64,000 bases of DNA, from assembly GCA_963715335.1 (NCBI GenBank), contig CAVQRZ010000025.1, forward strand, positions 132,936-196,935, read 5' to 3'. The DNA is from an uncultured delta proteobacterium (lineage in GTDB: Bacteria > Desulfobacterota > Desulfuromonadia > Desulfuromonadales > BM103). Below are positions 9,675 to 42,388 of the stretch, piece after piece. The position numbers and the translations under genes are program-made. Position 1 is the first letter of the stretch. Each line of letters starts with the position of its first letter. The notes beneath the pieces were generated by a model. That model made no database searches, was not told the origin of the DNA, and saw only the letters and a list, made by a program, of their open reading frames with translations.

Positions 9675-10982
9675 ATGAGCGAAAAAACCTTTCAGAAAAG
9701 AATCGTATCTCCGGCAAAAGTCTTGCGGGGAGAGATATCCGTTCCGGGTGACAAATCGATTTCGCACCGCTCGATCATGCTTGGATCGCTGGCGGAAGGC
9801 ACGACCCGTGTCAGCGGTTTCCTCATGGGCGAAGACAACCTGTCTACCTGGAAAGCATTCGAGGCCATGGGCGTGGCGATTAGTCAGACCGGTGCCGATG
9901 CGCTCGAAATAACAGGTGTCGGGATCGACGGACTTGCAGAGCCTGGAAACGTGATCGATTGCGGTAATTCAGGAACGACAATGCGCCTGATGTCAGGGTT
10001 GCTCGCCGGACAGAACTTTTTCTCAGTCCTCACAGGTGACAAGTACCTCCGAAAAAGGCCAATGAAGAGAGTCGTCACGCCACTGACTGCCATGGGCGCC
10101 CGGATCTGGGGTCGTGATGGCGGTGAGAGGGCGCCACTGGCTATCCGGGGAGGTTCCCTCACACCGCTCAACTATGCATCGCCAGTCTCCAGTGCACAGG
10201 TGAAGTCTGCAATCCTTCTGGCCGGCCTGTCAGTGGAGGGAGAAACAACGGTGACGGAGCCACACTTGTCGCGTGATCACAGCGAGCGCATGCTGACATG
10301 TTTCGGGGCCGATGTCCGGCCGTTCGAGGGAGGCGTCACTTTGCTTGGCAGGCCTCGACTGGCTGCGCAGCAGATCACGGTTCCCGGAGACATTTCATCA
10401 GCAGCCTTTTTCATGGTTGCCGGGCTAATTACACCCGGTGCCGAGCTTCTGATCCGCAATGTTGGTATCAACCCGACCCGTAGCGGAGTGATTGATATCC
10501 TGACGGCCATGGGTGGGCGACTCGAATTGCACGATATCAGGGAGCAGTCGGGAGAACCGGTTGCCGATGTCCTGGTTCGCTATAGCCAACTCAAAGCAAT
10601 AGATATCCATGGTGACATGGTCCCTCGCGCCATAGATGAATTCCCGGTAATCAGTGTCGCCGCTGCCCTGGCAGAGGGAACGACCACCATCCGCGAAGCC
10701 GAAGAGCTGCGCGTTAAGGAAACCGACCGCATCGCCGCCATGGTCAGCGAGTTGACGAAGATTGGCGGACAGGTTGAAGCACGCCCCGATGGGATGGTGA
10801 TCAACGGGGTTGAGCGTTTTGACGGTGCGACCGTTTCTTCACACGGGGATCACCGTATTGCCATGAGCATGGCCGTGGCCGCTCTTTCCGCTGTCGGTGG
10901 GGTAACGATCGAGGATACGGGCTGCACGGAGACTTCGTTCCCCGGTTTCTGGGAACTGATTGAAAAGATTCGTGGCGCGTAG
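9675..10982 (+). CDS. aroA: 3-phosphoshikimate 1-carboxyvinyltransferase (EPSP synthase)
   Basis: PGDKSISHR, GNSGTTMRL, SAQVKSA, RVKETDRI, DHRIAMS motifs. Confidence 0.98.
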   Translation: MSEKTFQKRIVSPAKVLRGEISVPGDKSISHRSIMLGSLAEGTTRVSGFLMGEDNLSTWKAFEAMGVAISQTGADALEITGVGIDGLAEPGNVIDCGNSGTTMRLMSGLLAGQNFFSVLTGDKYLRKRPMKRVVTPLTAMGARIWGRDGGERAPLAIRGGSLTPLNYASPVSSAQVKSAILLAGLSVEGETTVTEPHLSRDHSERMLTCFGADVRPFEGGVTLLGRPRLAAQQITVPGDISSAAFFMVAGLITPGAELLIRNVGINPTRSGVIDILTAMGGRLELHDIREQSGEPVADVLVRYSQLKAIDIHGDMVPRAIDEFPVISVAAALAEGTTTIREAEELRVKETDRIAAMVSELTKIGGQVEARPDGMVINGVERFDGATVSSHGDHRIAMSMAVAALSAVGGVTIEDTGCTETSFPGFWELIEKIRGA

Positions 10983-11120
10983 CGCGTGGCGTGACAACCA
11001 AAATGCTAAAACTACGAGAGGAACAATTTCCAAGAATGTTTTTGACATACAAACAACTGAATTCATGCACTGATAAATATTCGTTTTTCCTCGCGCCACG
11101 CGCCACGTGCCACGCGCCAC
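10971..11120 (+). repeat. Heptamer inverted-repeat element with about 100-nt AT-rich spacer at the aroA-cmk junction
   Basis: Left arm cgtggcg cgtagcg cgtggcg (contains the aroA TAG); right arm cgccacg cgccacg tgccacg cgccac, ending 10 nt before the cmk ATG. Confidence 0.9.
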
Positions 11121-11130
11121 TTTTTCAACC

Positions 11131-11826
11131 ATGAAAAAATTCATCATCGCCATAGACGGTCCTTCCGGAGTCGGTAAAAGCACCCTCAGCAAGCTGCTTG
11201 CCCGGGAACTCGGTTATCTCAACCTGGACACAGGAGCGATGTACCGGGCGGTTGCTCTGGCGGCGTCCCGTGGCGGAATCGACGCCAATGACCACGCTGC
11301 CCTGCAAAAACTCTGCAAAGACATTTTTATAAAATTTGCCCGTAAGGGTAATGATGAGGTTGTCCTGTTGAACGGCGAAGATGTCTCCAGAGCAATCCGT
11401 ACCCCGGAAATCAGCCTTCTGACCGCAGCCGTTGCGGCCTGCCCGGAGGTACGCAAGGCGATGGTTGAACGACAGAGAGAACTTGGCAACGCGGGCGGAG
11501 TGGTTCTCGAGGGGCGTGATATCGGGACTGTGGTTTTCCCTCAGGCGGACGTGAAATTTTTTCTTAAGGCTTCCTCGGAAGTGCGCGGACAGAGGAGGTT
11601 TTTAGAGCTTCAGTCACAGGGCGCAGAGGTTGGCCTGGCACGGACTATTGCCGATGTTAAAGCACGCGACAATGCCGATATTAACCGTTTGACTTCACCG
11701 CTGAAGCAGGCTGATGATGCTGTACTGATCGATACCACAGAGCTCGATATCCCCCAGGTCCTCGAACATATGCTCACGGTCATTCATGAAACCTGCAACC
11801 CAGGTCAAGCTGGCCAGCCCGGTTGA
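11131..11826 (+). CDS. cmk: Cytidylate kinase
   Basis: IAIDGPSGVGKST P-loop, LDTGAMYRA, EGRDIGTVVFP. Confidence 0.97.
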   Translation: MKKFIIAIDGPSGVGKSTLSKLLARELGYLNLDTGAMYRAVALAASRGGIDANDHAALQKLCKDIFIKFARKGNDEVVLLNGEDVSRAIRTPEISLLTAAVAACPEVRKAMVERQRELGNAGGVVLEGRDIGTVVFPQADVKFFLKASSEVRGQRRFLELQSQGAEVGLARTIADVKARDNADINRLTSPLKQADDAVLIDTTELDIPQVLEHMLTVIHETCNPGQAGQPG

Positions 11827-11829
11827 TCC

Positions 11830-12669
11830 ATGGAAATTATTCTCGCCAAAAGCGCCGGCTTCTGCTTCGGCGTAAGACGTGCCACCCAAATGGCTTTCGA
11901 AGCTGCTGCTGAACATGAGCATATCTGCTCTCTCGGGCCGGTGATTCATTCACCACAGGTTGTCAAGGGCTTGGCTGAACAGGGAGTCAGGGTTGTTGCC
12001 AATGTTGAGGATATCCCCCCCGGTTCGGTGATTATCCGTTCCCATGGCGTGACTGCCGAAGAGATGGACAAGATCCAGAAAAACAACCTGACAATTGTCG
12101 ATGCCACCTGTCCGTTTGTCAAAAAAGCCCAGGAGTACGCATCCCGGCTCAGTGAAGAGGGGTACACCGTCGTCATTGTCGGTGAGCTTGAACATCCTGA
12201 AGTGCAGGGGATTGTTTCCTATTCGGACGGTGCCGTCGTGCATGTTGTAGCCGATGCCAAACAAGCTGAATCCCTGCCGCGAATGAAGAAGGTCGGGATC
12301 GTCGCACAGACTACGCAGCTTTATGAAAACCTTAAGGATATTATGGATGTTTGTCTGGCAAAAAGCCAGGAACTGAGGGTTTTCAATACTATCTGTGACG
12401 CAACATCGGTTCGCCAGAACGAAGCGAGAGAGATTGCCCGGGCCGTAGACCTGATGTTCGTAATCGGTGGTCAGGCCAGTGCCAACACATCACGCTTGGC
12501 AAGCATCTGCAGGGAAATCCAGCCGCAGACCTGGCATGTCGAAACTGCTGAAGAAATCAGCCCTGACTATTTTGAGGATATCCGGAAGGTCGGCGTGACT
12601 GCCGGCGCATCAACACCGCGCTGGTTGATTGATGAAGTTATTGCAAGGATTGCTGAACTGGGAAAATAA
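11830..12669 (+). CDS. ispH: 4-hydroxy-3-methylbut-2-enyl diphosphate reductase
   Basis: GFCFGV, DATCPFV, TICDAT, GVTAGASTP motifs. Confidence 0.97.
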   Translation: MEIILAKSAGFCFGVRRATQMAFEAAAEHEHICSLGPVIHSPQVVKGLAEQGVRVVANVEDIPPGSVIIRSHGVTAEEMDKIQKNNLTIVDATCPFVKKAQEYASRLSEEGYTVVIVGELEHPEVQGIVSYSDGAVVHVVADAKQAESLPRMKKVGIVAQTTQLYENLKDIMDVCLAKSQELRVFNTICDATSVRQNEAREIARAVDLMFVIGGQASANTSRLASICREIQPQTWHVETAEEISPDYFEDIRKVGVTAGASTPRWLIDEVIARIAELGK

Positions 12670-12770
12670 TAGTTTGAGTTTTCCCGGGACCTATGCTATC
12701 TTCGCCGACCAATGGCCTGAGAGCCATACCACCGTTTTTACGGTGGAAATTGCTAGGGGGTAACTGGTTA

Positions 12771-14486
12771 ATGGTGGAAAGTAACGACACAACCAACAAC
12801 GAAACAGAAGAAATGGAAATGGAGCAGGACTTCGAGTCACTGTTCGAAAGCAGCATGCAGGAATTGCATGTTGGCGATGTAGTCCGCGGAACAATTGTAC
12901 AGGTCAATGATGACAACGTAGTTGTCGATGTTGGGTACAAGTCGGAAGGGGTCATCCCCCTTGTCGAGTTCAAGGATGAAGCAGGCAAAATCGACGTAAA
13001 CGTCGGTGACGAAATCGATGTCCTTTTCGAACGCCGTGAGAATGAAAGCGGTTTAATCGGACTCTCTAAGGAAAAAGCAGATCGCCAGAAGATCTGGGGT
13101 TCTCTGGAAGAGGGCGCCGTTGTTGAAGGCAAGATTGTTGGCCGTATCAAGGGTGGCTTGACTGTCGATATCGGCATCAACGCGTTTCTGCCCGGGTCGC
13201 AGGTTGATCTACGCCCGGTTCGCAACCTTGAGAAGCTACTGGGTGCGACCTTCAAGTTCAAGATTATCAAGCTGAACAAGCGGCGGGGTAATATTGTGCT
13301 TTCCCGTCGTGTGCTCCTCGAAGAGCAACGCGAGACCATGCGTTCCGACACCTTGGAAACCCTTGCTGAAGAGCAGGTCATCGAGGGTATTGTCAAGAAC
13401 CTGACCGATTATGGTTCATTCATCGACCTCGGCGGCATTGATGGCCTTTTGCATATCACGGATATGTCCTGGGGCCGGGTCAACCACCCCTCCGATGTGC
13501 TCACCGTTGGTGAAAAGATCAAGGTCAAGATTCTCAAGTACGATCGCGAACGCGAGCGTGTCTCTCTCGGCTTGAAGCAGATTACTCCCGATCCATGGCT
13601 GGAAGTGGAAACCATCTACCCGGTCGACACCAAGGTCCAGGGCAAGGTGGTCAGCCTGACGGACTACGGCGCATTCGTCGAACTGCAAGATGGCGTTGAA
13701 GGCCTGATACACGTCTCCGAGATGAGTTGGACCAAACGCATCAAACATCCCAACAAACTCCTGACCGTAGGCGATGAGGTAGAAACCGTCGTCCTGGCAC
13801 TGGATACCCCTAACCGGCGCATTTCGCTCGGCCTCAAGCAGATTGAACCGAATCCATGGGAAGTGATCGGCGAGAAATTCCCGCTCGGCACGATTATCGA
13901 AGGTCAGGTCAAGAATATAACCGATTTCGGTGTTTTCGTCGGTGTTGATGAAGGCATTGACGGCCTGGTACATATTTCTGATCTGTCTTGGACGAAACGC
14001 GTCAAACACCCGTCTGAAATCTTTAAAAAAGGTGACACCGTCAAGGCTGTTGTTCTGAATATCGATCGTGAAAACGAACGGTTCTCTCTTGGCCTCAAGC
14101 AGCTTTCTCCCGATCCATGGGAGTCGATTCCCGTGAAGTATGCACCAGGGACCATCGTATCGGGCAAGGCGACTTCGGTCACGGATTTCGGCGTATTTCT
14201 GGAGATCGAAGAGGGGATTGAGGGCTTAATCCATGTCTCCGAACTGAGCCAGGAGAAGGTCGAGAGCCCGAAAGATATAGTCAAAGTCGGCGATGCACTT
14301 GAAGCTGCTGTACTGAACGTTGACACTATGGACCGCAAGATCGCGCTGTCGATCAAACAGCTGACGCAACACAAGGAAAAAGCCGAGGTCCAGGCATTCC
14401 TCGGTGCCCAGAAAAAGGCTACATCCAACCTGGGGGCCCTGCTTCAGGGTGCAATGGACCGCAACGGCGAAGAATCATCAGACTAG
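12771..14486 (+). CDS. rpsA: 30S ribosomal protein S1
   Basis: Repeated S1 domains (GLLHITDMSW, GLIHVSEMSW, GLVHISDLSW); cmk-ispH-rpsA context. Confidence 0.98.
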   Translation: MVESNDTTNNETEEMEMEQDFESLFESSMQELHVGDVVRGTIVQVNDDNVVVDVGYKSEGVIPLVEFKDEAGKIDVNVGDEIDVLFERRENESGLIGLSKEKADRQKIWGSLEEGAVVEGKIVGRIKGGLTVDIGINAFLPGSQVDLRPVRNLEKLLGATFKFKIIKLNKRRGNIVLSRRVLLEEQRETMRSDTLETLAEEQVIEGIVKNLTDYGSFIDLGGIDGLLHITDMSWGRVNHPSDVLTVGEKIKVKILKYDRERERVSLGLKQITPDPWLEVETIYPVDTKVQGKVVSLTDYGAFVELQDGVEGLIHVSEMSWTKRIKHPNKLLTVGDEVETVVLALDTPNRRISLGLKQIEPNPWEVIGEKFPLGTIIEGQVKNITDFGVFVGVDEGIDGLVHISDLSWTKRVKHPSEIFKKGDTVKAVVLNIDRENERFSLGLKQLSPDPWESIPVKYAPGTIVSGKATSVTDFGVFLEIEEGIEGLIHVSELSQEKVESPKDIVKVGDALEAAVLNVDTMDRKIALSIKQLTQHKEKAEVQAFLGAQKKATSNLGALLQGAMDRNGEESSD

Positions 14487-14503
14487 ATCCGCCCACAACT
14501 GTG

Positions 14504-14538
14504 GCGCGTCCCCGTTTTAGCGGGGGCGCGCTTTTTTT
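14504..14538 (+). terminator. Rho-independent terminator after rpsA
   Basis: GCGCGTCCCCG...CGGGGGCGCGC stem followed by T7. Confidence 0.8.
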
Positions 14539-14547
14539 CGGGAAACC

Positions 14548-15438
14548 ATGAAGAAACGACCGTTTCTGCTGGCTTCTGCCCTATTGGCCGGGTGTTTTGT
14601 GTTCTTTTTGGCCCTGGCTGTTACCGTTGCAAGTTTCATGGGGCAGCCAACCAACCTTGTCATTGGCGACAAGGTCGGGATTGTTGAGATTTATGGAGTT
14701 ATAGATGACTCCAAGCAGCTCATCGAACAACTTCACGATTTCCGCGATAATGACAGCATAAAGGCTCTGGTTCTGCGCGTTGATTCTCCCGGTGGCGGAG
14801 TCGGTCCGTCGCAGGAGATTTATGACGAGGTTTTAGCCCTGGACAAACTGAAACCTGTTGTTGTCTCGATGGGCTCGGTTGCCGCTTCGGGCGGCTATTA
14901 CGTCGCTGCGGCGGCCCGAGAGATCGTTGCCAATCCTGGGACGATTACCGGCAGCATCGGCGTCATCATGGAGTTTGCCAATTTCCAGCAATTACTCGAA
15001 AAGATCGGCCTGAGCAGCGATGTTGTCAAGAGCGGTCCTTATAAGGACATCGGTTCGCCAACCCGTGAAATGTCAGCCGCGGAACGGGCAATCCTGCAGG
15101 ATCTGATCGACGATGTGCACAGCCAGTTTGTCAGTTCGGTTGCTGAAGGCAGAGCGCTGGATGAACAGGCTGTCAGGTTAATTGCTGACGGGCGAATTTT
15201 TTCCGGGCGCAAGGCAATGGAACTCGGCCTGGTCGACAGGATGGGCAACCTGCAGGTAGCTATTAATCGTGCCGCTGAACTGGCTGGCCTCGATGCCGAT
15301 CCGAAGGTTGTTTATCCCCCGGGCAAAAAGCCCAGTTTTATTGACCTGTTCATAGAGGAAACATTGAACCGGCTGCATTACGCCGTGCAGAAGCAGCGGT
15401 CGGTCGGTTTGCAATATCTTTGGCCAGGATTTGATTAG
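14548..15438 (+). CDS. sppA: Signal peptide peptidase SppA (S49 family, short form)
   Basis: VDSPGGGVGPSQEI, AASGGYY, TGSIGV motifs. Confidence 0.95.
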   Translation: MKKRPFLLASALLAGCFVFFLALAVTVASFMGQPTNLVIGDKVGIVEIYGVIDDSKQLIEQLHDFRDNDSIKALVLRVDSPGGGVGPSQEIYDEVLALDKLKPVVVSMGSVAASGGYYVAAAAREIVANPGTITGSIGVIMEFANFQQLLEKIGLSSDVVKSGPYKDIGSPTREMSAAERAILQDLIDDVHSQFVSSVAEGRALDEQAVRLIADGRIFSGRKAMELGLVDRMGNLQVAINRAAELAGLDADPKVVYPPGKKPSFIDLFIEETLNRLHYAVQKQRSVGLQYLWPGFD

Positions 15439-15448
15439 GAGGTCTGCC

Positions 15449-15730
15449 ATGACTAAGAGTGAGTTGATTGAACAACTGACAGTGGACAATGATGTTCTCA
15501 ACAAGCGGGAAGCCGAACTGATCGTCAATTCCATATTTGACAGCATCGGCCAGGCTCTTGTTGGAGGGGACCGGGTCGAGATACGTGGTTTTGGCTCTTT
15601 CACCGTGCGCGAGCGTGGTGCCCGAGAGGCACGCAACCCGAAAAGTGGTGATATTGTCAAGATTACTGCGAAAAAGACGCCATTTTTCAAAACCGGTAAA
15701 GAATTGCGCGAACGCGTCAATGTGGACTGA
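15449..15730 (+). CDS. ihfB: Integration host factor beta subunit
   Basis: MTKSELIE, RVEIRGFGSF, ARNPKSG, FKTGKELRERV; SD AGGAGG. Confidence 0.93.
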   Translation: MTKSELIEQLTVDNDVLNKREAELIVNSIFDSIGQALVGGDRVEIRGFGSFTVRERGAREARNPKSGDIVKITAKKTPFFKTGKELRERVNVD

Positions 15731-15768
15731 TTTGCTGAGTTCTTGAATTTTGTTGTCGGCGTAAAACA

Positions 15769-15806
15769 AGCGAGGCCCCGTTCATAAAACGGGGCCTCGC
15801 TATTTT
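15769..15806. terminator. Bidirectional terminator between ihfB and 6S RNA
   Basis: AGCGAGGCCCCGTT / AACGGGGCCTCGCT 14-bp stem flanked by A and T runs. Confidence 0.8.
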
Positions 15807-15810
15807 CAAG

Positions 15811-15990
15811 CAACCTCCGGAATACCGAAGCATACTCCCTAGAGAGGACCTGTGAATCTTCATATTACCCGGGATGGGTGTTTCAGGCTTCCCACTCGTG
15901 GGTGGGCTTGCTCACCACAGCCCGACTCCAGGCAAGAAATCGTTCAGTTGGTCAGCACAATCAGGAATAAGTCGCGCATTCCAGAGGTTG
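15811..15990 (-). ncRNA. ssrS: 6S RNA
   Basis: 180 nt with complementary ends (CAACCTCTGGAATGC...GTATTCCGGAGGTTG). Internal TGTGGTGAGCAAGCCC...GGGAAGCCTGAAAC resembles the E. coli 6S segment GTTGGTGAGCATGCTC...GAGAAGCCTTAAAAC. Has its own sigma70 promoter upstream. Confidence 0.85.
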
Positions 15991-16018
15991 TCAAAGATCT
16001 TGGTGGCATCTGACTCAC

Positions 16019-16046
16019 ATGCTAGCATAGCTTATCCCCCTGTCAA
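16019..16046 (-). promoter_or_regulatory. Sigma70-type promoter of 6S RNA
   Basis: Minus strand TTGACA-16 nt-TAGCAT with extended TG. Confidence 0.6.
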
Positions 16047-16105
16047 CAGTGCCCGTGAGGTTTTTTTAGAATTCATTCATGATGGGTCTGCTCCGGTAGA
16101 ATGAA

Positions 16106-17047
16106 ATGAAACAGTCGAACAAAACGATTCAATCCGGTGTTTACCGTTTTACGGTGACGGATGAGTATTCCGGACTCCGTCTCGACCAGTATCTTAATGA
16201 GGCCGGTGCAGATTTTTCAAGGACCCTCGCGCGCCAGGTTATCGACATTGGCGGCGTTCACCTGTCTGGCAGACGTGTGCGTCGCTGCAGCGAGGCGGTC
16301 AGTGCCGGCGACAAAATTGAAGTATATATTGACACTCTGCCCCTGGATCCAATCCCGCTCAATCATGAAAGAGTCATCTACCGCGACCAGTACCTGATAG
16401 TTCTGGACAAGCCTGCAGGTATGCCAACCCAGCCGACCCCGGCTCGCTACAAAGGCACCGTTTATTCGGAGTTGCAGAAGTTGCTCGGTGATCCGCAGCG
16501 CAGGGGGCAGCGCCCGAGCATCGGCATGGTTCAGCGCCTCGATCAGGACACTTCTGGAGTAATGGTCTTTTCGATTCACCCCAGGGCACACAAGAAGATG
16601 ACGGAACAGTTCCGTGGTCACCAGATCGACAAGACCTACTGGGCGTTGATCGATGGGGTGCCGGATGCAGCGGAAGGGAAATTCTGTTCTCAACTGGCCA
16701 GACGTCGCTCTACCAACCTGATGGTGTCCGTGGCAAAGGGTGGCAAGCCGTCGGAAACCCGCTACCGTCTGCTTAAGTCGATGAATGGCGTCAGCATGGT
16801 GGAAGTCGATCTCATAACCGGGCGTTCGCACCAGATCCGGGTACATTTCTCCGAAGCGGGCTTGCCGTTACTGGGTGACCCGGCATATGGAGGACCGAAG
16901 CGCGTTGCTGAACTTGTCATTCCCCGCCAGATGCTGCATGCCAGGGCGTTGGCCTTCCTACACCCGGTAACCGGTGAAAAAAGGCTTTTCACCGCGCCAC
17001 TGCCAGAGGATTTCTCATCCGTTCTGCAATCTCTTGATGTTGCTTGA
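16106..17047 (+). CDS. RluA/RluD family pseudouridine synthase
   Basis: N-terminal S4-like RLDQYL, KPAG, catalytic QRLDQDTSG, TGRSHQIRVH, GDPAYG. Confidence 0.93.
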   Translation: MKQSNKTIQSGVYRFTVTDEYSGLRLDQYLNEAGADFSRTLARQVIDIGGVHLSGRRVRRCSEAVSAGDKIEVYIDTLPLDPIPLNHERVIYRDQYLIVLDKPAGMPTQPTPARYKGTVYSELQKLLGDPQRRGQRPSIGMVQRLDQDTSGVMVFSIHPRAHKKMTEQFRGHQIDKTYWALIDGVPDAAEGKFCSQLARRRSTNLMVSVAKGGKPSETRYRLLKSMNGVSMVEVDLITGRSHQIRVHFSEAGLPLLGDPAYGGPKRVAELVIPRQMLHARALAFLHPVTGEKRLFTAPLPEDFSSVLQSLDVA

Positions 17048-17082
17048 ACGGCTACCAAGGATAAGGTATTGTATCGCCCGTC

Positions 17083-18488: not shown

Positions 18489-18528
18489 AGAAATGTCCGG
18501 AAGCGCGGGCATGCACACCTGATTTGAA

Positions 18529-27615: not shown

Positions 27616-28002
27616 ATGTTGAAAAAGCAGATTCAGACCACAGCCGCCCCTGCCGCAATCGGCCCGTACTCTCAAGCGGTCCGGGCGGGGGAGTTTATCT
27701 TTTACTCCGGGCAGATCCCACTCGATCCTGCAACAGGCGCCATCGTCGAAGGCGGAATTGAAGCGCAGACCGGTCAGGTTATGACGAACATGCGTGCCAT
27801 GTTGCATGCCTCTGGTTGCGACTTCTCCGATGTCGTCAAAACCACCATCTACCTGACGGATCTTGCTGATTTTGCAACGGTCAATGAGATCTACGGCGAG
27901 TCTTTCAGCGAAGTGCCTCCGGCGCGGGCCTGTGTACAGGTGGCCGCACTGCCCAAAGGGGCAATGATCGAGATCGAATGGATTGCGACCGTGAAACAAT
28001 AA
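27616..28002 (+). CDS. ridA: RidA/YjgF family enamine deaminase
   Basis: APAAIGPYSQAV, SGQIPLDP, PPARACVQVAALPKG..IEIE. Confidence 0.9.
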   Translation: MLKKQIQTTAAPAAIGPYSQAVRAGEFIFYSGQIPLDPATGAIVEGGIEAQTGQVMTNMRAMLHASGCDFSDVVKTTIYLTDLADFATVNEIYGESFSEVPPARACVQVAALPKGAMIEIEWIATVKQ

Positions 28003-28055
28003 AACGAGTGTGTCAGGAGCGCAGTCTTGAGTCATTAGTTAACACGCATGAACTT

Positions 28056-28094
28056 ATGGCAAAGATTGACAAATGGCAAAGATTGTCATAGCGT
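28056..28094 (+). promoter_or_regulatory. Promoter/operator of the ParDE-like TA operon
   Basis: Two ATGGCAAAGATTG repeats 17 bp apart, each an imperfect palindrome, overlapping TTGACA-17-TAGCGT. Confidence 0.65.
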
Positions 28095-28128
28095 AATGAT
28101 ATCCTCTGCCAATCTGAAGGAGACCGTT

Positions 28129-28362
28129 ATGGCCACTATGAATATATCTTTACCAGAGCAAATGAAGGCTTGGGTAGAAGAATGCGTGCATTCTGGGAGA
28201 TACTCAAACTCCTCTGATTACATCCGGGACTTGATCAGAAAAGACCACTTGAAGTTGGAAGAGCTACGTCAAGCCTTAATTGAAGGCGAAAAATCAGGCC
28301 CTTCTGCAGGCTTGGACATTGAAGCTTTTATCGCTGACAAGAAGAAGTCCTTGTCATTATGA
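28129..28362 (+). CDS. Type II antitoxin, ParD (RHH, CC2985-like) family
   Basis: MATMNISLPEQMKAWVE...SGRYSNSSDYIRDLIR...LRQALIEGEKSG; SD AAGGAG. Confidence 0.92.
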   Translation: MATMNISLPEQMKAWVEECVHSGRYSNSSDYIRDLIRKDHLKLEELRQALIEGEKSGPSAGLDIEAFIADKKKSLSL

Positions 28363-28652
28363 GTGGGATTGTTTTATCCCCCAAAGCAAAAGCGGACCTC
28401 TCAGAAATTTGGGATTACACATACTCTGAATGGGGTGTTGAGCAAGCCGAGAAATATGTTCGTGACCTATGGTCTGTGATGCAAGAAAAGACTCGTGAGC
28501 TCACAAAATCTGTTGATATTGGTGACGTGAGAAAAGGATATAGGAAAGTAAGATCAGGCTCTCATGTCGTTTTCTTTAAGGTAACCAGAGAAGGTGTCGT
28601 TGACGTAGTGAGAATATTGCACCAGAAAATGGATTTTGACAGGCATCTTTAG
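28359..28652 (+). CDS. Type II toxin, ParE family
   Basis: LSPKAKADLSEIWDYT...WGVEQAEKY...VVRILHQKMD; ATGA overlap with the antitoxin. Confidence 0.92.
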   Translation: MSGIVLSPKAKADLSEIWDYTYSEWGVEQAEKYVRDLWSVMQEKTRELTKSVDIGDVRKGYRKVRSGSHVVFFKVTREGVVDVVRILHQKMDFDRHL

Positions 28653-28840
28653 CCCATTTGTGTGTGTCAGTAGCTTGGTGAATGAGAATTTATGGGGGAT
28701 ATGACTTATAACTACAGGCCATCCTCACGATAACGGGTGGCTTTGTTTTTGCAGACTAGAAGTGTCTAAAAATAAGGGACGATTCAAGTTTTCATGGCTC
28801 CTGAGCAATTGCCCGGAGCCCTTTGTTTGACAAAAACCCC

Positions 28841-28888
28841 TTGTCCTTGCTCTCTAGCTCCGATATAATGTAACGCAAATGCAACGCA
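28841..28888 (+). promoter_or_regulatory. Promoter/operator of the second TA operon
   Basis: TTGTCC-17-TATAAT followed by the direct repeat TGTAACGCA-aa-TGCAACGCA. Confidence 0.55.
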
Positions 28889-28899
28889 AGGAGCGAGTT

Positions 28900-29184
28900 A
28901 TGAAAACAGCAAGCATGCCATCTCTCCGAGTAGACCCCGATCTACGCCATGATGCAGAAAGTGTTTTGCGTGATGGAGAAACTCTGTCCAGTTTTATGGA
29001 ACAGGCACTTCGGTCTAGCATCCAGTCCCGTCGCGCGCAAAAAGAGTTTATAGCTCGTGGACTCTCCTCTCGTGAAGAAGCACAACGAACCGGCGAATAT
29101 TTTTCTTCTGAGGATGTTATGAGTGAAGTGGAAGACATGTTGTCGCGGGCAGAATCTAAGGCTCGCAAGTGCAGTATCGGGTAA
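28900..29184 (+). CDS. RHH antitoxin, YlcI/YnfO-like family
   Basis: MKTASMPSLRVDPDLR..AESVL..GETLSSF....R..Q.EFIARGL. Confidence 0.85.
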   Translation: MKTASMPSLRVDPDLRHDAESVLRDGETLSSFMEQALRSSIQSRRAQKEFIARGLSSREEAQRTGEYFSSEDVMSEVEDMLSRAESKARKCSIG

Positions 29185-29468
29185 GGTACACAAAAGCGGC
29201 CAAAGAAGATCTCCTGCGACTTTATGAATTTCTAGTAGAGAATGATCTTGAAGTGGCACGAAGAGCACTTGAATCGATCAGAAAGAGCATAACTCTCCTT
29301 CAGGACTTTCCATTTACTTGTAGAAAGGCCTCTCCAGACAATCCTTTTCTAAGAGAGATGGTGATAGGTTTTGGCGGAGGTGGATATGTTGCCCTTTTTG
29401 AGATTGAGGCAGATAATCTTGTGACCGTTTTAGCAGTTCGGCATCAAAGGGAAGAGGATTACCATTAG
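29169..29468 (+). CDS. RelE/ParE family toxin
   Basis: YRVRYTKAAKEDLLRLYEFL...LREMVIGFG..GYVALFEI...VLAVRHQREEDYH. Confidence 0.88.
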   Translation: MQYRVRYTKAAKEDLLRLYEFLVENDLEVARRALESIRKSITLLQDFPFTCRKASPDNPFLREMVIGFGGGGYVALFEIEADNLVTVLAVRHQREEDYH

Positions 29469-29737
29469 AAGAGTGTGTCAGCTGCACGCTTTTGACACAC
29501 TTCAAAGCAGCATCATTGCCCCTGCTTACAATTGGCTTCGCATTTGTGCAAAATTCCTAAAACCCTCGTCCCTGACACACTGCCTATAAATTTTTTTAGA
29601 AGTTATGCCAGCAAGAATTTCCTGAATTACCTTAGACTTATAAGACCAATCATTTATCAACACAGAACGCAAACAGAACCCAAAATAAAAGAGGCGACCT
29701 TGTCAGGCCGCCCCTTTAAAATTTTTCGCCAGCCAAT

Positions 29738-29929
29738 TTAGCTGGCTTTTTGCACTGCCCCTGAACGGATGCAACGCGTGCACACTTTCACGCTGCGCAC
29801 GGAGCCGTTCTTGACGGCACGCACCTTCTGCAGGTTTGGCTTAAAAACCTTCTTGGTTTTATTGTGTGCATGGCTGACATTACAGCCGGTCATGCGTTTT
29901 TTTCCGCAAACATCACATACGTTAGCCAT
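29738..29929 (-). CDS. rpmB: 50S ribosomal protein L28 (Zn-ribbon form)
   Basis: [23 protein letters not shown]...[17 protein letters not shown]. Confidence 0.97.
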
Positions 29930-33566: not shown

Positions 33567-33723
33567 GAGGGATCTCCTTGTATGTAAAAGGTCGCGCTAT
33601 TAAATAAATCACCCCCCTGCGGGTTGTCAATCGCAAAGCATTAAATGAGCGGTAATCTGCGCCTGGCAGTCAACCGTGACCGGATTGATTCAGCCCTTTA
33701 CAGGTTGGGGCCGGTATCCTATT

Positions 33724-34254: not shown

Positions 34255-34285
34255 GACAGTGTCCCGATCAGGAGAAATCTTTCGA

Positions 34286-35140
34286 ATGAAGAACTACAGG
34301 ACCAAGATTATTTCCAACCAGGAGATTTCGCCCGGATGTTACCGGATGCGGATCCTGGCGCCAGGCTTCAGCGAAACGGCCCATCCCGGGCAGTTTGTCA
34401 TGTTCCGTGTGCAGCGCTCGCTGCCGCCACTGTTGCGGCGGCCGTTCGGCATTTTTCGTACCGGTTTTCTGCCGGCGGATTGCGATGGCCTGCCGCCCAA
34501 GGAGTATGTCGAGATCGTCTACAAGGTCGTAGGCTGGGGCACGACGATCATGGCGGAGCTGCATGAAGGGGACAAGGTGGAGCTGCTCGGCCCGCTCGGC
34601 AACGGTTTCGATGTCCCATCATGTGACGGGGAACGGATTCTGGTCGGAGGGGGGATCGGCCTGGTTCCCCTCTACATGCTGGCTGGCGAACTGGTTGAAA
34701 AAGGCTGCAGTGTCCGGCTGTTGATGGGTGGCCGTACGCGCGACGATATCTTTGCGGTGACCGAATTCGAACGACTCGGTGTCGAGACCTATGTTTCCAC
34801 TGATGACGGCAGCCTCGGCGAAGAGGGGCTGGTGACCCAGGTCCTGGAGCGCAAGCTGCAACAATTCCCCAAAGCTGAAGTGTTTGCCTGCGGACCAATG
34901 CCGATGCTCTGCGCCGTGCGTAACATCTGCGCAGCCAACAAGACGCCGTTGCAGGTCTCCCTGGAAGAGTCGATGGCCTGCGGCGTCGGTGCCTGCCTCG
35001 GCTGTGTGGTCAAGGGGGCCGGGCATACCGAGGAGCGGCCGAGCTATCTTTGCACCTGCAAGGTCGGGCCGGTTTTCAAAGCCCAATATCTCGATTGGAA
35101 TGCTCTGGCACAGAGTCATGGCTGCGGGGGGTGTGAGTGA
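34286..35140 (+). CDS. pyrK: Dihydroorotate dehydrogenase B electron transfer subunit
   Basis: PGQF, LRRP, GPLGNGF, GGGIG, CGP.PM, MACGVGACLGC. Confidence 0.93.
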   Translation: MKNYRTKIISNQEISPGCYRMRILAPGFSETAHPGQFVMFRVQRSLPPLLRRPFGIFRTGFLPADCDGLPPKEYVEIVYKVVGWGTTIMAELHEGDKVELLGPLGNGFDVPSCDGERILVGGGIGLVPLYMLAGELVEKGCSVRLLMGGRTRDDIFAVTEFERLGVETYVSTDDGSLGEEGLVTQVLERKLQQFPKAEVFACGPMPMLCAVRNICAANKTPLQVSLEESMACGVGACLGCVVKGAGHTEERPSYLCTCKVGPVFKAQYLDWNALAQSHGCGGCE

Positions 35141-36081
35141 TGGGTAAGCTGATCAAGACAACAGTCAAAAAACCCAACATGGCGGTCGAGATTGCCGGCA
35201 TCAAACTGCGCAACCCGGTCATGCCCGCTTCAGGGACCTTCGGCTACGGCGAAGAGTACGCACCTTTCCTCGACCTGGAAAAGATTGGCGCAATCGTCAC
35301 CAAGGGTTTGTCATTGAAGCCGAAGGCCGGAAATCCGACTCCGCGAATCGCCGAGACAGTCAGTGGCATGCTGAACGCCATCGGCCTGCAGAATGTCGGC
35401 ATCGAGGCGTTTATCCAGTACAAAATGCCTTTCCTGCGCACTGTCAACACTCCGGTCATTGTCAACTTTTTCGGCAACACCCTGGAAGAGTATGGCGAAG
35501 TCGCAAAACGCCTGAACGACATCCCTGAGATTGCGGCTGGAGAGCTTAATATCTCCTGTCCGAACGTCAAACAGGGCGGGATTGTTTTCGGCACAGACCC
35601 CAAGGCTGCCAGCGAAGTCGTTGCGCTGGTGCGCAAGAACCTGCAAAAGCCGTTGATCGTCAAATTGACACCAAACGTGACCGATATCACGGTCGTGGCA
35701 AGGGCGGTGGAAGAGGCCGGCGCCGATGCGATTGCCTGCATCAACACCATCACCGGTATGTCAGTGGATGTCCGCACCCGCAAGCCGAGAATAGCCAACC
35801 GCACCGGCGGTCTTTCCGGCCCGGCGATCCGTCCGATAGCCGTGCGCATGGTGCACCAGGTCGTGCAGACCGTCTCGGTGCCGGTCATCGGCATCGGTGG
35901 CATCTCACGTCCGATGGATGCCCTTGAATTCCTGATTGTCGGTGCCAGGGCGGTACAGGTCGGCACGGCCAATTTTGTCGACCCCTCAGTCATGCAGACG
36001 ATTATCGACGGGATCGAGGAGTTCTGTCTTGACGAGGGAATCGAGGATATCCACGAACTGATTGGTAGCCTCAAGCTCTGA
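35137..36081 (+). CDS. pyrD: Dihydroorotate dehydrogenase B catalytic subunit
   Basis: ASGTFG, GN.TPRI.ET, NISCPNV, KLTPN, GGLSGPAI.P. Confidence 0.96.
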   Translation: MMGKLIKTTVKKPNMAVEIAGIKLRNPVMPASGTFGYGEEYAPFLDLEKIGAIVTKGLSLKPKAGNPTPRIAETVSGMLNAIGLQNVGIEAFIQYKMPFLRTVNTPVIVNFFGNTLEEYGEVAKRLNDIPEIAAGELNISCPNVKQGGIVFGTDPKAASEVVALVRKNLQKPLIVKLTPNVTDITVVARAVEEAGADAIACINTITGMSVDVRTRKPRIANRTGGLSGPAIRPIAVRMVHQVVQTVSVPVIGIGGISRPMDALEFLIVGARAVQVGTANFVDPSVMQTIIDGIEEFCLDEGIEDIHELIGSLKL

Positions 36082-36217
36082 GTGGCGCGTGGCGCGTGGC
36101 GAGAGAAGGCATGATCAACGTTTTTTATGAAAATCAGTGCCAAAATTCTGAGATGGTAGACTGTACAGATAATCCACCAGTCTTGAATCATTAAGTTTTT
36201 TCGCGCCACGCGCCACG
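36081..36217 (+). repeat. Heptamer inverted-repeat element with about 100-nt AT-rich spacer at the pyrD-nucleotidyltransferase junction
   Basis: Left agtggcg cgtggcg cgtggcg starting at the pyrD TGA; right cgccacg cgccacg ending 8 nt before ATG. Confidence 0.88.
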
Positions 36218-36225
36218 GATTTCCA

Positions 36226-38916: not shown

Positions 38917-38930
38917 AATCAAACTTTTTA

Positions 38931-39038
38931 TCACGCAGAGTCGCAGAGGAAATCAAAGAGACTTTCCAGAGTCAAAAAACATATTGTTTTACTCTTTGTC
39001 CTCTGCGTCTCGAGTGAGTATAACGAACGGGCGTGAAA
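38931..39038. repeat. CGCAGAG-family stem-loop element (copy 1)
   Basis: tcacgcagagtcgcagagga...tcctctgcgtctcgagtgagtataacgaacgggcgtgaaa. Confidence 0.8.
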
Positions 39039-39196
39039 AGTTCATATTATAGTTTCAGAATAAAAAATAGGCTAATTATATTACTCTTTAATTTCAGATA
39101 TTTATGAAGGCTGTCTGGTTTGTGGCCCATTGACTCCTGGCAGCGCATCTGCTAAAAATACCCATCCTTTTTATTGATCGGTAGACGCCACTCCCT

Positions 39197-39880
39197 ATGG
39201 AACATATCCTGCTGAAAATTTCCATTATGCTGGTGCCGGCGCTGCTGGCCGTCACCCTGCATGAAGTGGCGCATGGCTTCTCTGCCGAAAAGCTCGGAGA
39301 CCCGACCGCGAGGCTGCTCGGCCGCCTGACGTTGAACCCGCTCAAACACCTCGATCCGATCGGAACCATAGCGCTGCTGGTTTTCGGTTTTGGCTGGGCC
39401 CGTCCGGTTCCGGTCAATGCGAACAACCTGCGCCATCCGCAGAAGGACATGATCTGGGTCTCCCTTTCCGGTCCTCTGGCGAACCTGATGCTGGCGCTCT
39501 TTTGTGCGTTGCTGCTGCGTGTGGTCGTCTATGTTGCGGCCTCCCTTCCCGAGACCAGTGAAGTGTTGTCATTCATTAAACCGGTCGGCCTGATGGCGGC
39601 CTTCGGTCTCTATATCAACGTCATCCTTTGCCTCTTCAACCTGCTGCCGATCCCGCCGCTCGACGGCGGCCGTGTGCTGATGGGGATTCTGCCGGAGAAA
39701 CAATCGCTGATGCTGCGACGCATCGAACCCTTCGGGATGTTACTGATCGTCTTTTTGATTTTTGGTACGTCGATCTGGAGTAAGGCTTTCGGACCAGCCG
39801 TCCACAACGTGGTGTCTTTGATGGCCGGTCCGCATATGGATGTCGTCGAACAGACCATGCGCCTGCTCTTTTACCGGTGA
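39197..39880 (+). CDS. Site-2 protease (M50 family, YwhC-like)
   Basis: HEVAH zinc motif, GD.TAR..GRLTLNP..H.DP.GT, NLLPIPPLDGG. Confidence 0.93.
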   Translation: MEHILLKISIMLVPALLAVTLHEVAHGFSAEKLGDPTARLLGRLTLNPLKHLDPIGTIALLVFGFGWARPVPVNANNLRHPQKDMIWVSLSGPLANLMLALFCALLLRVVVYVAASLPETSEVLSFIKPVGLMAAFGLYINVILCLFNLLPIPPLDGGRVLMGILPEKQSLMLRRIEPFGMLLIVFLIFGTSIWSKAFGPAVHNVVSLMAGPHMDVVEQTMRLLFYR

Positions 39881-40656
39881 TGATGATGAGTGGCTACGAT
39901 ATCCACCTGGAGAATTTCGAGGGGCCGCTCGACCTTCTGCTCCATCTCATCAAGAAGAACGAGATGGATATTTCCGATATCCCGATCGCTGCAGTCACCG
40001 AGCAGTACCTCGGCATCCTCGATGCCATGAAGACCCTCAATCTCGACATAGCAGGAGAGTTCCTGCTGATGGCGGCCACCTTGCTGCACATCAAGTCGAA
40101 GATGCTCCTGCCTAGTATCGTTGAAGACGAAACGGAGGAAGAGGAAGAAGATCCGCGCGCGGAACTGGTCCGGAGACTGCTCGAGTACCAGAAGTACAAG
40201 GACGTTTCGGAGACTCTCGAAGCCAGGCCCCTGCTGGGACGCGACCTGTTTACCCGAGCAGTTCCCGAGCCGGAGGTGCTGGAAGAGGCTGAGACGGGGT
40301 TTGTCGCAGTCGGCCTGTTTGACCTGTTGGCCGCATTGAGGGACGTCCTTGAGGAAAAGCCCGAGGAGCTTGTTCACGAAGTCAATATGGAAAAACTTTC
40401 CGTGACGGATCGCATCAACGCGATTTTGACCGGATTGCAGGGGAAGGAAAGTGTAGCTTTCCTCGACCTTTTCAGTGACGGCATCAAGCGTTCGGAGGTC
40501 ATTGTGACTTTTCTGGCCCTGCTGGAACTGGTCAAGATGCGCATGGTCCGCTTCATGCAGAATACTCATCACGGAACCATCTGGCTCTTCCTGTCCGTTG
40601 CGGTTGACGACACTGCAACGCTGGAAGTCGGAGAAGACAGTCTTGGATATACATGA
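39880..40656 (+). CDS. scpA: Segregation and condensation protein A
   Basis: FEGPLDLLLHLI, EFLLMAATLL.IKSKMLLP, TFLALLEL. Confidence 0.96.
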   Translation: MMMSGYDIHLENFEGPLDLLLHLIKKNEMDISDIPIAAVTEQYLGILDAMKTLNLDIAGEFLLMAATLLHIKSKMLLPSIVEDETEEEEEDPRAELVRRLLEYQKYKDVSETLEARPLLGRDLFTRAVPEPEVLEEAETGFVAVGLFDLLAALRDVLEEKPEELVHEVNMEKLSVTDRINAILTGLQGKESVAFLDLFSDGIKRSEVIVTFLALLELVKMRMVRFMQNTHHGTIWLFLSVAVDDTATLEVGEDSLGYT

Positions 40657-41242
40657 TCTCATACCATTGGCAGAAGCCCTGATCTTTGCTGCCGACGGGC
40701 CGATCAAAGCCGAACGTATGGCTGAAGCGCTGGATGTGCCTCTGACAGATGTCAGGGAAGCTATAACGGCGCTTGAGGTGGATTACGCCGAGCGTCCGCG
40801 CGGGTTCTTCCTGCAGGAAGTTGCCGGTGGCTACCAGTTGAGGACCCGCCCGGAATATGCTGATTACCTGAGAAAGCTTGGTCGCAGCCGGCCATTCCGT
40901 TTTTCACGCCCCGCCCTGGAGAGCCTGGCGATCGTCGCTTACCGCCAGCCGGTCACCCGTTCGGAAATCGAATACCTGCGTGGCGTCGATTCCGGCAGCG
41001 TTCTGAAGACCTTATTGGAGAAGCATCTGGTGAGAATTCTGGGCAAGAAGGATGTCCCGGGCAAGCCGATGATCTACGGTACGACCAGGGAGTTCCTCGA
41101 ACTGTTTGGCCTGCCCGACCTGTCGTCACTGCCAACCCTCAGTGAGTTCAGCGAACTGGCACCTGATGCCGAAACAGAGGCGCTCATGGAAAGCCTACCG
41201 TTGCTGGTTGATGGGGAAGAATCAGGCCCGCGGGATACGTAA
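40643..41242 (+). CDS. scpB: Segregation and condensation protein B
   Basis: EALIFA, VAGGYQLRT, ALESLAIVAYRQPVTR.EIE..RGV, YGTT..FL..FGL; TTG start after GGAG. Confidence 0.96.
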   Translation: MDIHDLIPLAEALIFAADGPIKAERMAEALDVPLTDVREAITALEVDYAERPRGFFLQEVAGGYQLRTRPEYADYLRKLGRSRPFRFSRPALESLAIVAYRQPVTRSEIEYLRGVDSGSVLKTLLEKHLVRILGKKDVPGKPMIYGTTREFLELFGLPDLSSLPTLSEFSELAPDAETEALMESLPLLVDGEESGPRDT

Positions 41243-41383
41243 CGAAGTGCGAGGTGCGTAGCGCGATGTGCGAAAAGCATCATGCCTGACAACTTTTTAT
41301 ACCAAATGATTTTTGGGATAATCTGAGTTAAAGATGCTTTTGTAACGAATTCTTCTTTCGCACTTCGCACCTCTCACTTCGCG
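41243..41383 (+). repeat. Heptamer inverted-repeat element (CGAAGTG type) after scpB
   Basis: Left cgaagtg cgaggtg cgtagcg cgatgtg cgaaa; right tttcg cacttcg cacctct cacttcg; spacer about 85 nt. Confidence 0.88.
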
Positions 41384-41395
41384 GGTCACGCTTGT

Positions 41396-41428
41396 AAAAA
41401 AAAGCCGGCAACCAATTGGTTGCCGGCT
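41396..41428 (-). terminator. Rho-independent terminator of the PxxKW gene
   Basis: AGCCGGCAACC / GGTTGCCGGCT stem with A8 on the plus strand. Confidence 0.8.
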
Positions 41429-41457
41429 CTAAGTCTTTTACGTCGACGAGATTGCCG

Positions 41458-41736
41458 TTAACGACCAGCGCGCTTCGAAGCTTTGAGCGGGTTGACCTTG
41501 ACGTCTTCAATCTTGACTTCAACTTTCCGATGAGTGGCCATGTTGCAGAGGCCTGCGGACCATTTCTTGATCGGGGCAGGGGCCTTGAGGCAGACCGGGC
41601 CGATGGTGCCTTCGGCGATATGATCGCAACCTACACACATTTCGATCACGTTCTGGCAGCTGCCGCCTTCGCAAATACAACCTTTTTTACTCCAGAAAGT
41701 ACATTCTGTTCCGGGAAGAACTGTTTGACACTGCAT
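41458..41736 (-). CDS. PxxKW-family cysteine-rich protein
   Basis: C-rich 92 aa with PIKKW, CNMATH and C-terminal NPLKASKR, typical of Deltaproteobacteria. Confidence 0.88.
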   Translation of the reverse strand: MQCQTVLPGTECTFWSKKGCICEGGSCQNVIEMCVGCDHIAEGTIGPVCLKAPAPIKKWSAGLCNMATHRKVEVKIEDVKVNPLKASKRAGR

Positions 41737-41873
41737 GGGGCACTCCTTTTACCTATTACTTGGTTCACGTTTACGAGGGGGATTTCTACCTCCTTTTGCA
41801 GAGCTTTGTCAACTTAAAAAATCCATAAGTTGTTGCCATTGACCGGATTTTTCACGTCAGGTAGTTTGTTGAT

Positions 41874-42176
41874 ATGACAAAACCAGGCAAACCGAATACG
41901 AAGAGCTGGGAGGCACTCTGCAGCCGATGCGGCCGATGCTGTTTCGAAAAGATCGATTTCGAGGGACGCATCTACTACACGGGACTGCCGTGTGAATATC
42001 TCGATACCGAGACGAAGCGCTGCCATGTCTACGATGAACGCGACGAGAAGCGTCCCGGCTGCGTGCGCCTGACATCTGAAAATATCAAAAAAGGGTTCCT
42101 GCCGGCAGACTGCGCTTACGTAGCCGACATCGAGGATTATCCTGCTCCGATAATGCCGGAAGATGAGGAAATATGA
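41874..42176 (+). CDS. YcgN/YkgJ-like CxxCxxCC cysteine-cluster protein
   Basis: WEALCSRCGRCC..K, C.YLD.ET.RC.VY..R, LPADCAY. Confidence 0.82.
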   Translation: MTKPGKPNTKSWEALCSRCGRCCFEKIDFEGRIYYTGLPCEYLDTETKRCHVYDERDEKRPGCVRLTSENIKKGFLPADCAYVADIEDYPAPIMPEDEEI

Positions 42177-42388
42177 AGTGCGAGGTGCGCTGTGTGAGAT
42201 GCGAAAACTCTAAAGTAAAAGCAAATATATCTCTCGCAGAGGCGCAGAGCGCGCAAAGAAAGAATAATAGACAGCTGTAAACTCTTGAAGTTTTGGAAGC
42301 CTCTGTGCTCTCAGCGTCTCATCTGAATGATGCGAATGGGCGAAAGCTAAAGATTTTTCACGCCTCGCGCTTCGCACCTCACGTTTCA
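42174..42388 (+). repeat. Heptamer inverted-repeat element containing a nested CGCAGAG-family element (42232-42345)
   Basis: Left tgaagtg cgaggtg cgctgtg tgagatg cgaaaa (starts at the TGA stop); right ttttca cgcctcg cgcttcg cacctca cgtttca. Confidence 0.85.

Follow-up and report, generated by a model that had tools for sequence, protein, structure and literature searches.

Gene-less pairs of heptamer repeats at core-operon junctions of a Desulfuromonadales genome: junction-specific spacers and their replacement between relatives

Are paired arrays of heptamer repeats that enclose nothing but short AT-rich DNA between core genes the emptied remains of mobile cassettes, or do they hold sequence that belongs to the junction itself? 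The question is raised by a stretch of 64,000 nt (hereafter the window) from the genome of an uncultured delta proteobacterium of the order Desulfuromonadales (contig CAVQRZ010000025.1, positions 132,936 to 196,935), in which five gene-less pairs of such arrays, or arms, lie at junctions such as aroA-cmk and pyrD, and two comparable pairs each enclose a gene for a four-helix-bundle protein (family PF05635). A first-pass annotation of the window took the gene-less pairs for derivatives of the gene-bearing cassettes, either non-autonomous, like MITEs (transposable elements that are miniature and bounded by inverted repeats), or cargo-deleted. Such an origin is not supported for these spacers in the source genome. 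The spacers are junction-specific DNA of host type, as seen at pyrD and in a loop of the CpsB/CapC gene and, more weakly, at aroA-cmk (scpB is not among the supporting sites), and between relatives they are either kept or replaced as blocks together with their arms. We give a probability somewhat above even to an explanation in which junction hairpins are kept paired by template switching, while the blocks they enclose are exchanged between lineages in the manner of rRNA intervening sequences.

A genome-wide family of heptamer pairs

The source genome (3.3 Mb in 43 contigs, 55.5% GC, with a listed contamination of 6.9%) contains 130 arrays of period 7, against 3-43 for periods 5, 6 and 8-11. 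The units fall into five classes: CGTGGCG (class A), CGAGGTG, also found as CGAAGTG (class B), CGGGACG (class C), TGGGGGC (class D) and CAGAATC (class E). Profiles of these classes yield 177 arm calls of at least 20 bits in the genome and none in a Markov null, a comparison that is favourable because arrays of this very genome served to train the profiles. Of these calls, 19 fall in the window, where the first-pass annotation had counted more than 12 arms; all five gene-less sites that it listed are present, including an AT-type variant at recJ/FNT, and, as it had noted, sites and gene-bearing cassettes share their unit classes (A and B). A contig from an independent run (X2) is identical to the window over 35839-36217, which argues against an assembly artefact, with the reservation that X2 may be the source sample; a scan of metagenomes for the pattern returned one locus. 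The gene-less heptamer pairs are real, and due neither to chance nor to artefact.

The arm calls form 72 left-right pairs, 68 of them gene-less with spacers of up to 200 nt. Their orientation follows a strand rule: neighbouring opposite arms show the G-rich array before the C-rich one in 60 of 65 cases (the reverse order in 5), and among solitary arms 45 of the 48 that could be read unambiguously face away from the gene closest to them (29 others are ambiguous and one is intragenic). According to a rough gene caller of our own, for which the background is listed as 1249 co-directional, 317 convergent and 247 divergent, 56 pairs lie between co-directional genes, 7 between convergent and 4 between divergent ones, one is intragenic and 4 are long. 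Arms hug gene edges, with median distances of 5 nt from stop codon to arm and 21 nt from arm to start codon, and no extension of the stem beyond the arms was found. Same-class arms cluster within 3 kb (22 of 61, against 12.6), with no class clustering beyond that distance. Class ratios also differ by genome: matches to the class A and class C patterns stand at 52:26 in the source genome, 28:75 in its sister species (G002) and 8:103 in another genome, G017. Some single arms have expanded up to about 18 units (C30:60599-60718 and C43:64395-64475 in the source genome; loci L152, L162 and L164), which is consistent with slippage.

Gene-less sites in the window

Genes flanking these sites were assigned with NCBIfam and Pfam. 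Between aroA and cmk, a left arm of three class A units (10971..10991, + strand) covers the last aroA codons and the stop codon, and a right arm of four class A units (11094..11121, - strand) ends 9 nt 5' of the cmk start; the spacer (10992..11093; 102 nt, 33% GC) is single-copy in the genome. After pyrD, a class A left arm (36081..36101, +) begins at the stop codon and is followed by a spacer of 102 nt and 35% GC (36102..36203) and by a right arm of two class A units (36204..36217, -), with the start codon of an A-adding tRNA nucleotidyltransferase gene 8 nt further on. Immediately 3' of the scpB stop codon, which precedes a DUF6811 gene, a left arm of class B (CGAGGTG/CGAAGTG; 41243..41270, +) and a right arm of the same class (41361..41381, -) enclose a single-copy spacer of 90 nt and 33% GC (41271..41360). 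A terminator-like hairpin just outside this element (41396..41429) is conserved in 18 of 18 resolved junctions, and the last scpB codons contain a remnant class C unit.

Between ycgN and the phosphomutase gene (pgm), the left arm (42174..42201, +) is degenerate class B and holds the ycgN stop codon within its first unit, and the right arm (42359..42388, -) is class B. The roughly 153 nt between them include a nested element (42230..42347) of a second multicopy inverted-repeat family, with units of 8-9 nt and a small hairpin, which is more intact in the sister species. Finally, the AT-type pair of recJ and the FNT channel gene (5232..5306) has a short spacer and lies between convergent genes, and its left arm is retained in three congeners.

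At the four main sites the spacers have 33-42% GC, against 55.5% for the genome. The aroA-cmk, pyrD and scpB elements fold with z scores of -4.1 to -5.6 (0 of 200 shuffles as good), and the recJ/FNT variant with z -0.7 on the + strand (weak) and -3.1 on the - strand (significant). A typical spacer length of about 90-110 nt, proposed at first, describes aroA-cmk, pyrD and scpB, the nested ycgN-pgm spacer being longer, but is no trait of the family: the 68 gene-less pairs have a median of 31 nt, with 37 below 40 nt and 12 at 85-115 nt.

Spacers hold junction-specific sequence

In an all-against-all comparison, and against the genome, 37 spacers of 25-200 nt proved single-copy, only nested repeats of other families being multicopy; that spacers lack mutual similarity had been seen correctly in the first reading. 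The clearest content is at pyrD, where an extended -10-type motif, TGnTAnnnT (36154..36162, +), is a candidate promoter of the A-adding nucleotidyltransferase gene. Of 28 pyrD junctions, 15 have it in sense orientation and 2 in antisense, against 4.1 expected, and it is found with arms of class A, B, C or D around it or with no arms at all. Because a sigma-70 consensus scan of the + strand at pyrD found no -35/-10 pair, the promoter call is carried solely by the conservation of the extended -10 motif; we consider it likely that the motif is the promoter of that gene.

The second case lies inside a protein gene. An in-frame class A pair in the CpsB/CapC gene (55308..55470, +) brackets a loop motif of the host protein that is retained family-wide. 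All through the family this gene has a variable loop; loops of 168-300 nt occur both with arms and without, in frame in 28 of 29 cases, and an amphipathic motif, F/W-x-K/R-K/R-L, is kept, flanked by arms of several classes or none. In the copy of the sister species, the loop is frameshifted, with class C arms and stops.

At aroA-cmk, 29 relatives show an ATGA overlap (5), a gap of 11-35 nt (9) or an armed gap of 148-170 nt (9), the arms being mostly class C on both sides; others carry unrelated repeat families, and 60 further genomes added one more class A gap. The relatives with overlap or short gap imply that this junction has gained DNA. An aligned -10-like hexamer is present in some relatives and degenerate in the source genome, and we claim no promoter here. 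At ycgN-pgm, an extended -10-type motif is found in 20 of 25 junctions, and in the source genome it lies outside the arms (42391..42399, +), in a position to serve pgm.

Arms and spacers are replaced as blocks

Over the region syntenic with the window, gaps that carry arms show lower conservation than the rest (against G002, medians of 0.59 and about 0.85, p 0.006; against G004, p 0.002). The family is spread genome-wide, as the first-pass annotation supposed, and turns over like mobile DNA. When 35 junctions were compared manually with the sister species, 20 had kept their class and 15 had been replaced, arms and spacer alike, four of the latter carrying a non-heptamer repeat family instead; an automatic call gave 16 unchanged, 5 with both arms switched, 8 with one arm changed or lost and 6 absent. 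The outcome is bimodal, as median spacer scores (18 spacers of at least 40 nt) are 0.83 where the class is the same and 0.12 where it has changed. Coding flanks of replaced sites have a lower identity over their final 30 nt (0.84 vs 0.91, p 0.03) but not from 30 to 300 nt, where they equal those of the other sites.

The pyrD junction illustrates this pattern. A contig of run X6, with about 96% identity to the window on either side, swaps 36078-36208 (131 nt) for 159 other nucleotides, and the left arm at pyrD is of class C in X8, a run from the same study. Between the source genome and its sister, the flanks are 93% identical and the gap 47%. The G002 gap matches those of other congeners at 72-83%, and also a contig with 79% flanks at 69%; a short allele of class D is common to all four congeners, even though G002 is the sister of the source genome (100/98 support). 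The source spacer is closest to those of two genomes of other genera, G032 and the arm-less G014 (z 8.7 and 6.5), whereas 24 of the 25 remaining relatives stay below z 1.3 (G007 reaches 3.6). Such a distribution of alleles needs either lateral exchange or a wrong tree.

Similarly, the cassette between wzc and cpsB has arms of five unit types across seven genomes. Between source and sister, the four-helix gene is 75% identical in this class-switched cassette and 96% in the unswitched one; the four-helix protein tree is weakly supported, with some clades sharing a unit type. Two further rearrangements concern the blocks themselves. One spacer, of a class D pair, is inverted between the source genome (C1:67447-67593) and G002 (L269), with a terminator-like hairpin inside, and in G017 (L127) the arms and spacer of the CpsB loop have been copied into the gene gap 420 nt downstream (about 1950-2100 and 2370-2520, gene orientation).

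A proposed model of exchange and template switching

The explanation that we favour starts from what is observed: arms occupy gene edges with the G-rich strand leading away from the gene, beginning at the stop codon and ending some 20 nt short of the next start codon, and at pyrD and in the CpsB loop, less clearly at aroA-cmk, they enclose host-type sequence of that junction rather than four-helix cargo. A junction either stays nearly unchanged or has its block replaced, with about 30 nt of coding flank affected. As the alleles at pyrD disagree with the host tree, we infer lateral exchange, for which gene conversion or recombination over short homology could be the route. Template switching or recombination between arms would homogenise partners, as suggested by the inversion, the local copy and the matching of partner subclasses in classes A, B and C (0.83 vs 0.71 for shuffled partners; 0/2000); it would occasionally flip or copy a block, and slippage would alter the number of units. 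In the last and weakest step, the four-helix genes would be the one recurring passenger, whose products may bind the units, and the arms could persist without them. On balance, promoters, leaders and the tails of proteins are probably remodelled fast and with nearly neutral effect.

Several points weigh against this explanation. The analysis found neither an enzyme nor a donor for the exchange, and "short-homology exchange" is description and inference at once. Ordinary homologous recombination from donors just 75-80% identical would be inefficient and should leave foreign tracts longer than 30 nt; the flank effect within 0-30 nt is itself modest, and flanks are not independent. About 1.5 of the 3.2 Mb of G002 was used in the sister comparison, so that 35 of the 68 pairs were comparable. 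Inversion and local copy are one case each. Partners of classes D and E match no better than in within-class shuffles, and the better-than-random pairing anticipated in the first reading holds for classes A to C only. The model has yet to account for the roughly 130 nt gained at aroA-cmk relative to the overlap state, and the strong tie between four-helix genes and arrays is accommodated only by making the protein a passenger or a binder.

On this reading, the repeats mark gaps whose contents, promoters included, are replaced as blocks between lineages; 15 of 35 sites have been replaced in this way, at a stage when identity of the flanking genes still stands at about 92%. If this is right, core operons would change fastest at such gaps, which would act as hotspots for their cis-regulatory DNA and their protein tails, and the PF05635 family would gain a concrete candidate ligand. 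Exchange that truly needs just about 30 nt of homology would be a recombination route out of the ordinary.

Alternative explanations

An unlikely variant gives the arms themselves a role in transfer: they would be the recognition ends of a novel homing-like system that swaps whole intergenic blocks, be they promoters, leaders, protein loops or at times a four-helix gene, across species with just about 30 nt of flanking homology, the four-helix protein annealing or binding in trans or transiently.

That the gene-less pairs are MITE-like or cargo-deleted cassettes, moved by a four-helix protein (or some partner of it) acting in trans, seems to us rather improbable. The two kinds of element do have their unit classes in common and four-helix genes are closely tied to arms: at least one side has a heptamer array in 30 of 36 such genes and both sides in 17 of 36, against 1% of the 3028 genes of the source genome, where matched arms with an AT-rich interior enclose PF05635 genes and no others. 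Pfam and TIGR searches find three intact copies there, with arms of classes A, B and D, and a frameshifted one with class E; the two four-helix proteins of the window match PF05635 only in Pfam. The frameshifted copy (C1:62.0-62.7 kb, outside the window) also speaks for this model; it has a left arm only, and at the same junction the gene is intact with both arms in G019, G033 and G028. In two loci, L176 (G004) and L159 (G001), the 3' half of the four-helix gene of the class D cassette has been duplicated in tandem, and the right arm with it. The DNA gain at aroA-cmk would also suit an emptied cassette, as would the fact that the dominant class tracks the class of the C- or A-armed cassette in 6 of 6 genomes checked, but class C is dominant in most family genomes anyway.

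Remnants of cargo, however, were not detected. A search of 51 spacers with nhmmer profiles from 35 family cassettes gave nothing at E 10, although it recovered the pseudogene; tblastn of four-helix proteins against the same spacers reached E 0.006 at best, as did 8 of 40 shuffles, and GGAGG is present in just 3 of the 51. A 10-residue tblastn match in the pyrD spacer (E 0.01) was discarded, 10 of 40 shuffles reaching 0.01, as were matches in L067, L080, L098 and L108, which are to the frameshifted tail of one family protein (residues 90-115) and not to the domain. Nor do relatives carry a four-helix gene at these junctions, a check that the first-pass annotation had proposed: none was found at aroA-cmk (0/89), pyrD (0/29), scpB (0/17) or ycgN-pgm (0/24). 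In the reverse test (43 profile matches, 20 rows without synteny), cysD-cysN is filled in G024 and gene-less in the source genome, which fits emptying, but the arm class differs and no relic is left; wzm-wzt holds the gene in two relatives, G028 and G065, where the source genome has one short arm.

Spacers are single-copy, and no target duplication of fixed length was seen, the longest shared word averaging 3.97 vs 3.76 in shuffles (20/500), with the proviso that the ends of the arms might conceal a duplicated CG. A cognate transposase with heptamer ends was not found among the Y1, reverse transcriptase and GxxExxY families, which were the ones searched out of all transposases; GxxExxY (TIGR04256, PF13366) was not found in the source genome. 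Two Y1 transposase genes resembling REP-associated tyrosine transposases (RAYTs; REP, repetitive extragenic palindrome) are present (C10:40073-40402 and C9:68347-68679), flanked by palindromic repeats of their own; no heptamer arm lies within 1.5 kb of them, and their repeats also occur inside some heptamer spacers. Across 44 genomes, arm abundance does not follow four-helix gene count (rho 0.19, p 0.21), a comparison limited by hand-compiled counts and incomplete assemblies, and arm-rich genomes without a detected gene exist, such as G015 (99% complete), which has no PF05635 match yet 40 arm-pattern matches. Two of the three observations that the first-pass annotation named as telling against a cassette origin have therefore been made, wholly or in large part: relatives lack cargo, and the spacer is, at pyrD at least, ordinary promoter-like sequence.

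Rewriting in place, without lateral transfer, is a still more doubtful possibility. A cut hairpin or cruciform would undergo error-prone repair with template switching, which would mutate the spacer heavily and install a new unit from an arm of the same genome. The restriction of replacement to the gap agrees with this, as do traces of local homology in some switched spacers (e.g. C1:351728), the genome-specific class ratios, local clustering and the local copy. It is harder to reconcile with pyrD, where four congeners share a short allele and the sister-nested source genome has a long one closest to other genera; moreover, about 40% divergence per event is hard to reach through repair errors, and the source genome has no match to the reverse transcriptase family PF00078.

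Least probable of all is that the arms are selected RNA stems, pairing in polycistronic mRNA as in an rRNA intervening sequence and cut by RNase III or stabilising the transcript and so tuning operon expression: arms do run from the stop codon to just 5' of the next ribosome-binding region, mostly between co-directional and seldom between divergent genes, with strong predicted folding and complementarity restored after class changes, but the strand counts argue against it, since on the mRNA strand of 54 elements G.T pairs are fewer than A.C mismatches (45 vs 87, a count possibly biased by stop codons within left arms), 11 elements favour that strand and 27 the other, and folding energy is symmetric (26 vs 28), while a promoter between the arms would leave a one-armed transcript, many arms are solitary, and gaps are lost or occupied by unrelated repeat families in sister species.

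Other features of the window

The two gene-bearing cassettes are both on the + strand. That of wzc-cpsB (54374..54866) has class A arms around a PF05635/TIGR02436 gene (54438-54797), and the second (55786..56287) has class B arms around a PF05635 gene (55846-56232); a further left arm occupies 56182-56209. A solitary class A left arm (8697..8724, +) lies directly 3' of the pheA stop codon, and a class C-like left arm with no partner called is found at 48049-48074, in the 3' part of the open reading frame (ORF) 46822-48174.

The second inverted-repeat family, with units of 8-9 nt and a small terminal hairpin, is represented at about 38925-39035, 46600-46720 and 57280-57320 in addition to the copy nested at ycgN-pgm. 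It has 14 strict copies in the genome, and among relatives one and the same junction may have either this family or heptamer arms; no GxxExxY gene was found alongside it. A stretch of about 1.7 kb with small ORFs (28002-29738) has no counterpart in G002 and G004, whose gaps measure less than 90 nt. Rfam gave no match in the window. This includes, at gathering score, a 375-nt gap (15730-16106) of structured look and about 90% conservation across congeners, which, presumably, could be a non-coding RNA such as 6S, to judge from its position.

Comparison with known systems

Short inverted intergenic repeats with many copies and fast turnover are typical of REPINs, associated with RAYTs, and of bacterial MITEs. 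The heptamer pairs differ in having no shared internal sequence, no fixed target duplication has been seen in them, and the Y1 genes of this genome carry a different repeat; terminal inverted repeats like those of MITEs are present, but they are tandem-periodic and of five classes. Diversity-generating retroelements combine an Avd-like protein with a reverse transcriptase and with template and variable repeats; this candidate was rejected given the missing PF00078 match and the PF05635-only proteins of the window.

Heptamer repeats are over-represented in bacteria with no accepted cause, according to the portion available of the study by Rehm et al. (2015, PMC4692102), which describes convergent pairs of G-rich heptamer repeats in Xanthomonas (GGGAATC) and Nostoc. 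These resemble the present ones in being intergenic arrays of about 4 units near ORF ends, with the same strand rule, lengths that vary between species and no assigned function, and their number, 70-75 convergent inverted pairs per genome, is similar. Period-7 arrays, convergent inverted pairs in gene gaps and the strand rule (45/48; 60 vs 5) are accordingly all found here. In contrast, that account gives one unit type per genus with the site type usually preserved, whereas here at least five classes replace one another and spacers are block-replaced; units of classes A, B and E lack the GGG tracts needed for quadruplexes, and a link to four-helix genes was not seen in the portion available.

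In Geobacter metallireducens, class 3 multicopy repeats consist of five tandem heptamers, with pairs on opposite strands, and were proposed as sites of unidentified global regulators (IHF/HU) in the part available of Aklujkar et al. (2009, PMC2700814). To the extent available, this report and that on G. bemidjiensis (PMC2996986) describe paired tandem repeats of 7-9 nt on opposite strands, at variable distance, between core genes and nested with other repeats, as well as a repeat replaced by a different one in a sister species (proBA), all as observed here; compared by eye, the class 3 consensus resembles our class E. The same extracts differ in offering no spacer analysis and no visible four-helix link, and the main text of PMC3543383, as far as available, has nothing on heptamers. 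Our look-ups returned nothing on class switching or block replacement of heptamer arms, nor did we find a published link between heptamer arms and TIGR02436/PF05635, most subscription papers lying outside the search. The gene-less heptamer architecture is thus already in print; new here are the host-derived spacers and the swapping confined to the junction.

Template switching between inverted-repeat arms is predicted to homogenise the arms (PMC5941160) and to invert the spacer (PMC8604942), in the passages available, and both outcomes are seen in our data. It leaves the 7-nt period, the shared vocabulary of units and block replacement unexplained.

The closest likeness is to the intervening sequences (IVSs) of 23S rRNA, which, in the part available of Warrier et al. 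(2016, PMC4990558), are hairpin-bounded blocks at a fixed site, sporadic, with lateral transfer inferred and with ORF-bearing and ORF-less forms. Their S23p four-helix ORF belongs to the same family, PF05635, and the four-helix protein found here matches the Xanthomonas structure 2GSC (E 2e-12). Sporadic lateral exchange at a fixed site is also what the pyrD and wzc cassette alleles point to, as they conflict with the host tree. IVSs differ, as far as that account goes, in that the present elements lie between or inside protein genes, with tandem heptamers as arms, an interior that can be a promoter and a transcript strand that shows no trace of being selected for pairing. By analogy, then, the heptamer pairs appear to work most like 23S rRNA IVSs, without being members of that group.

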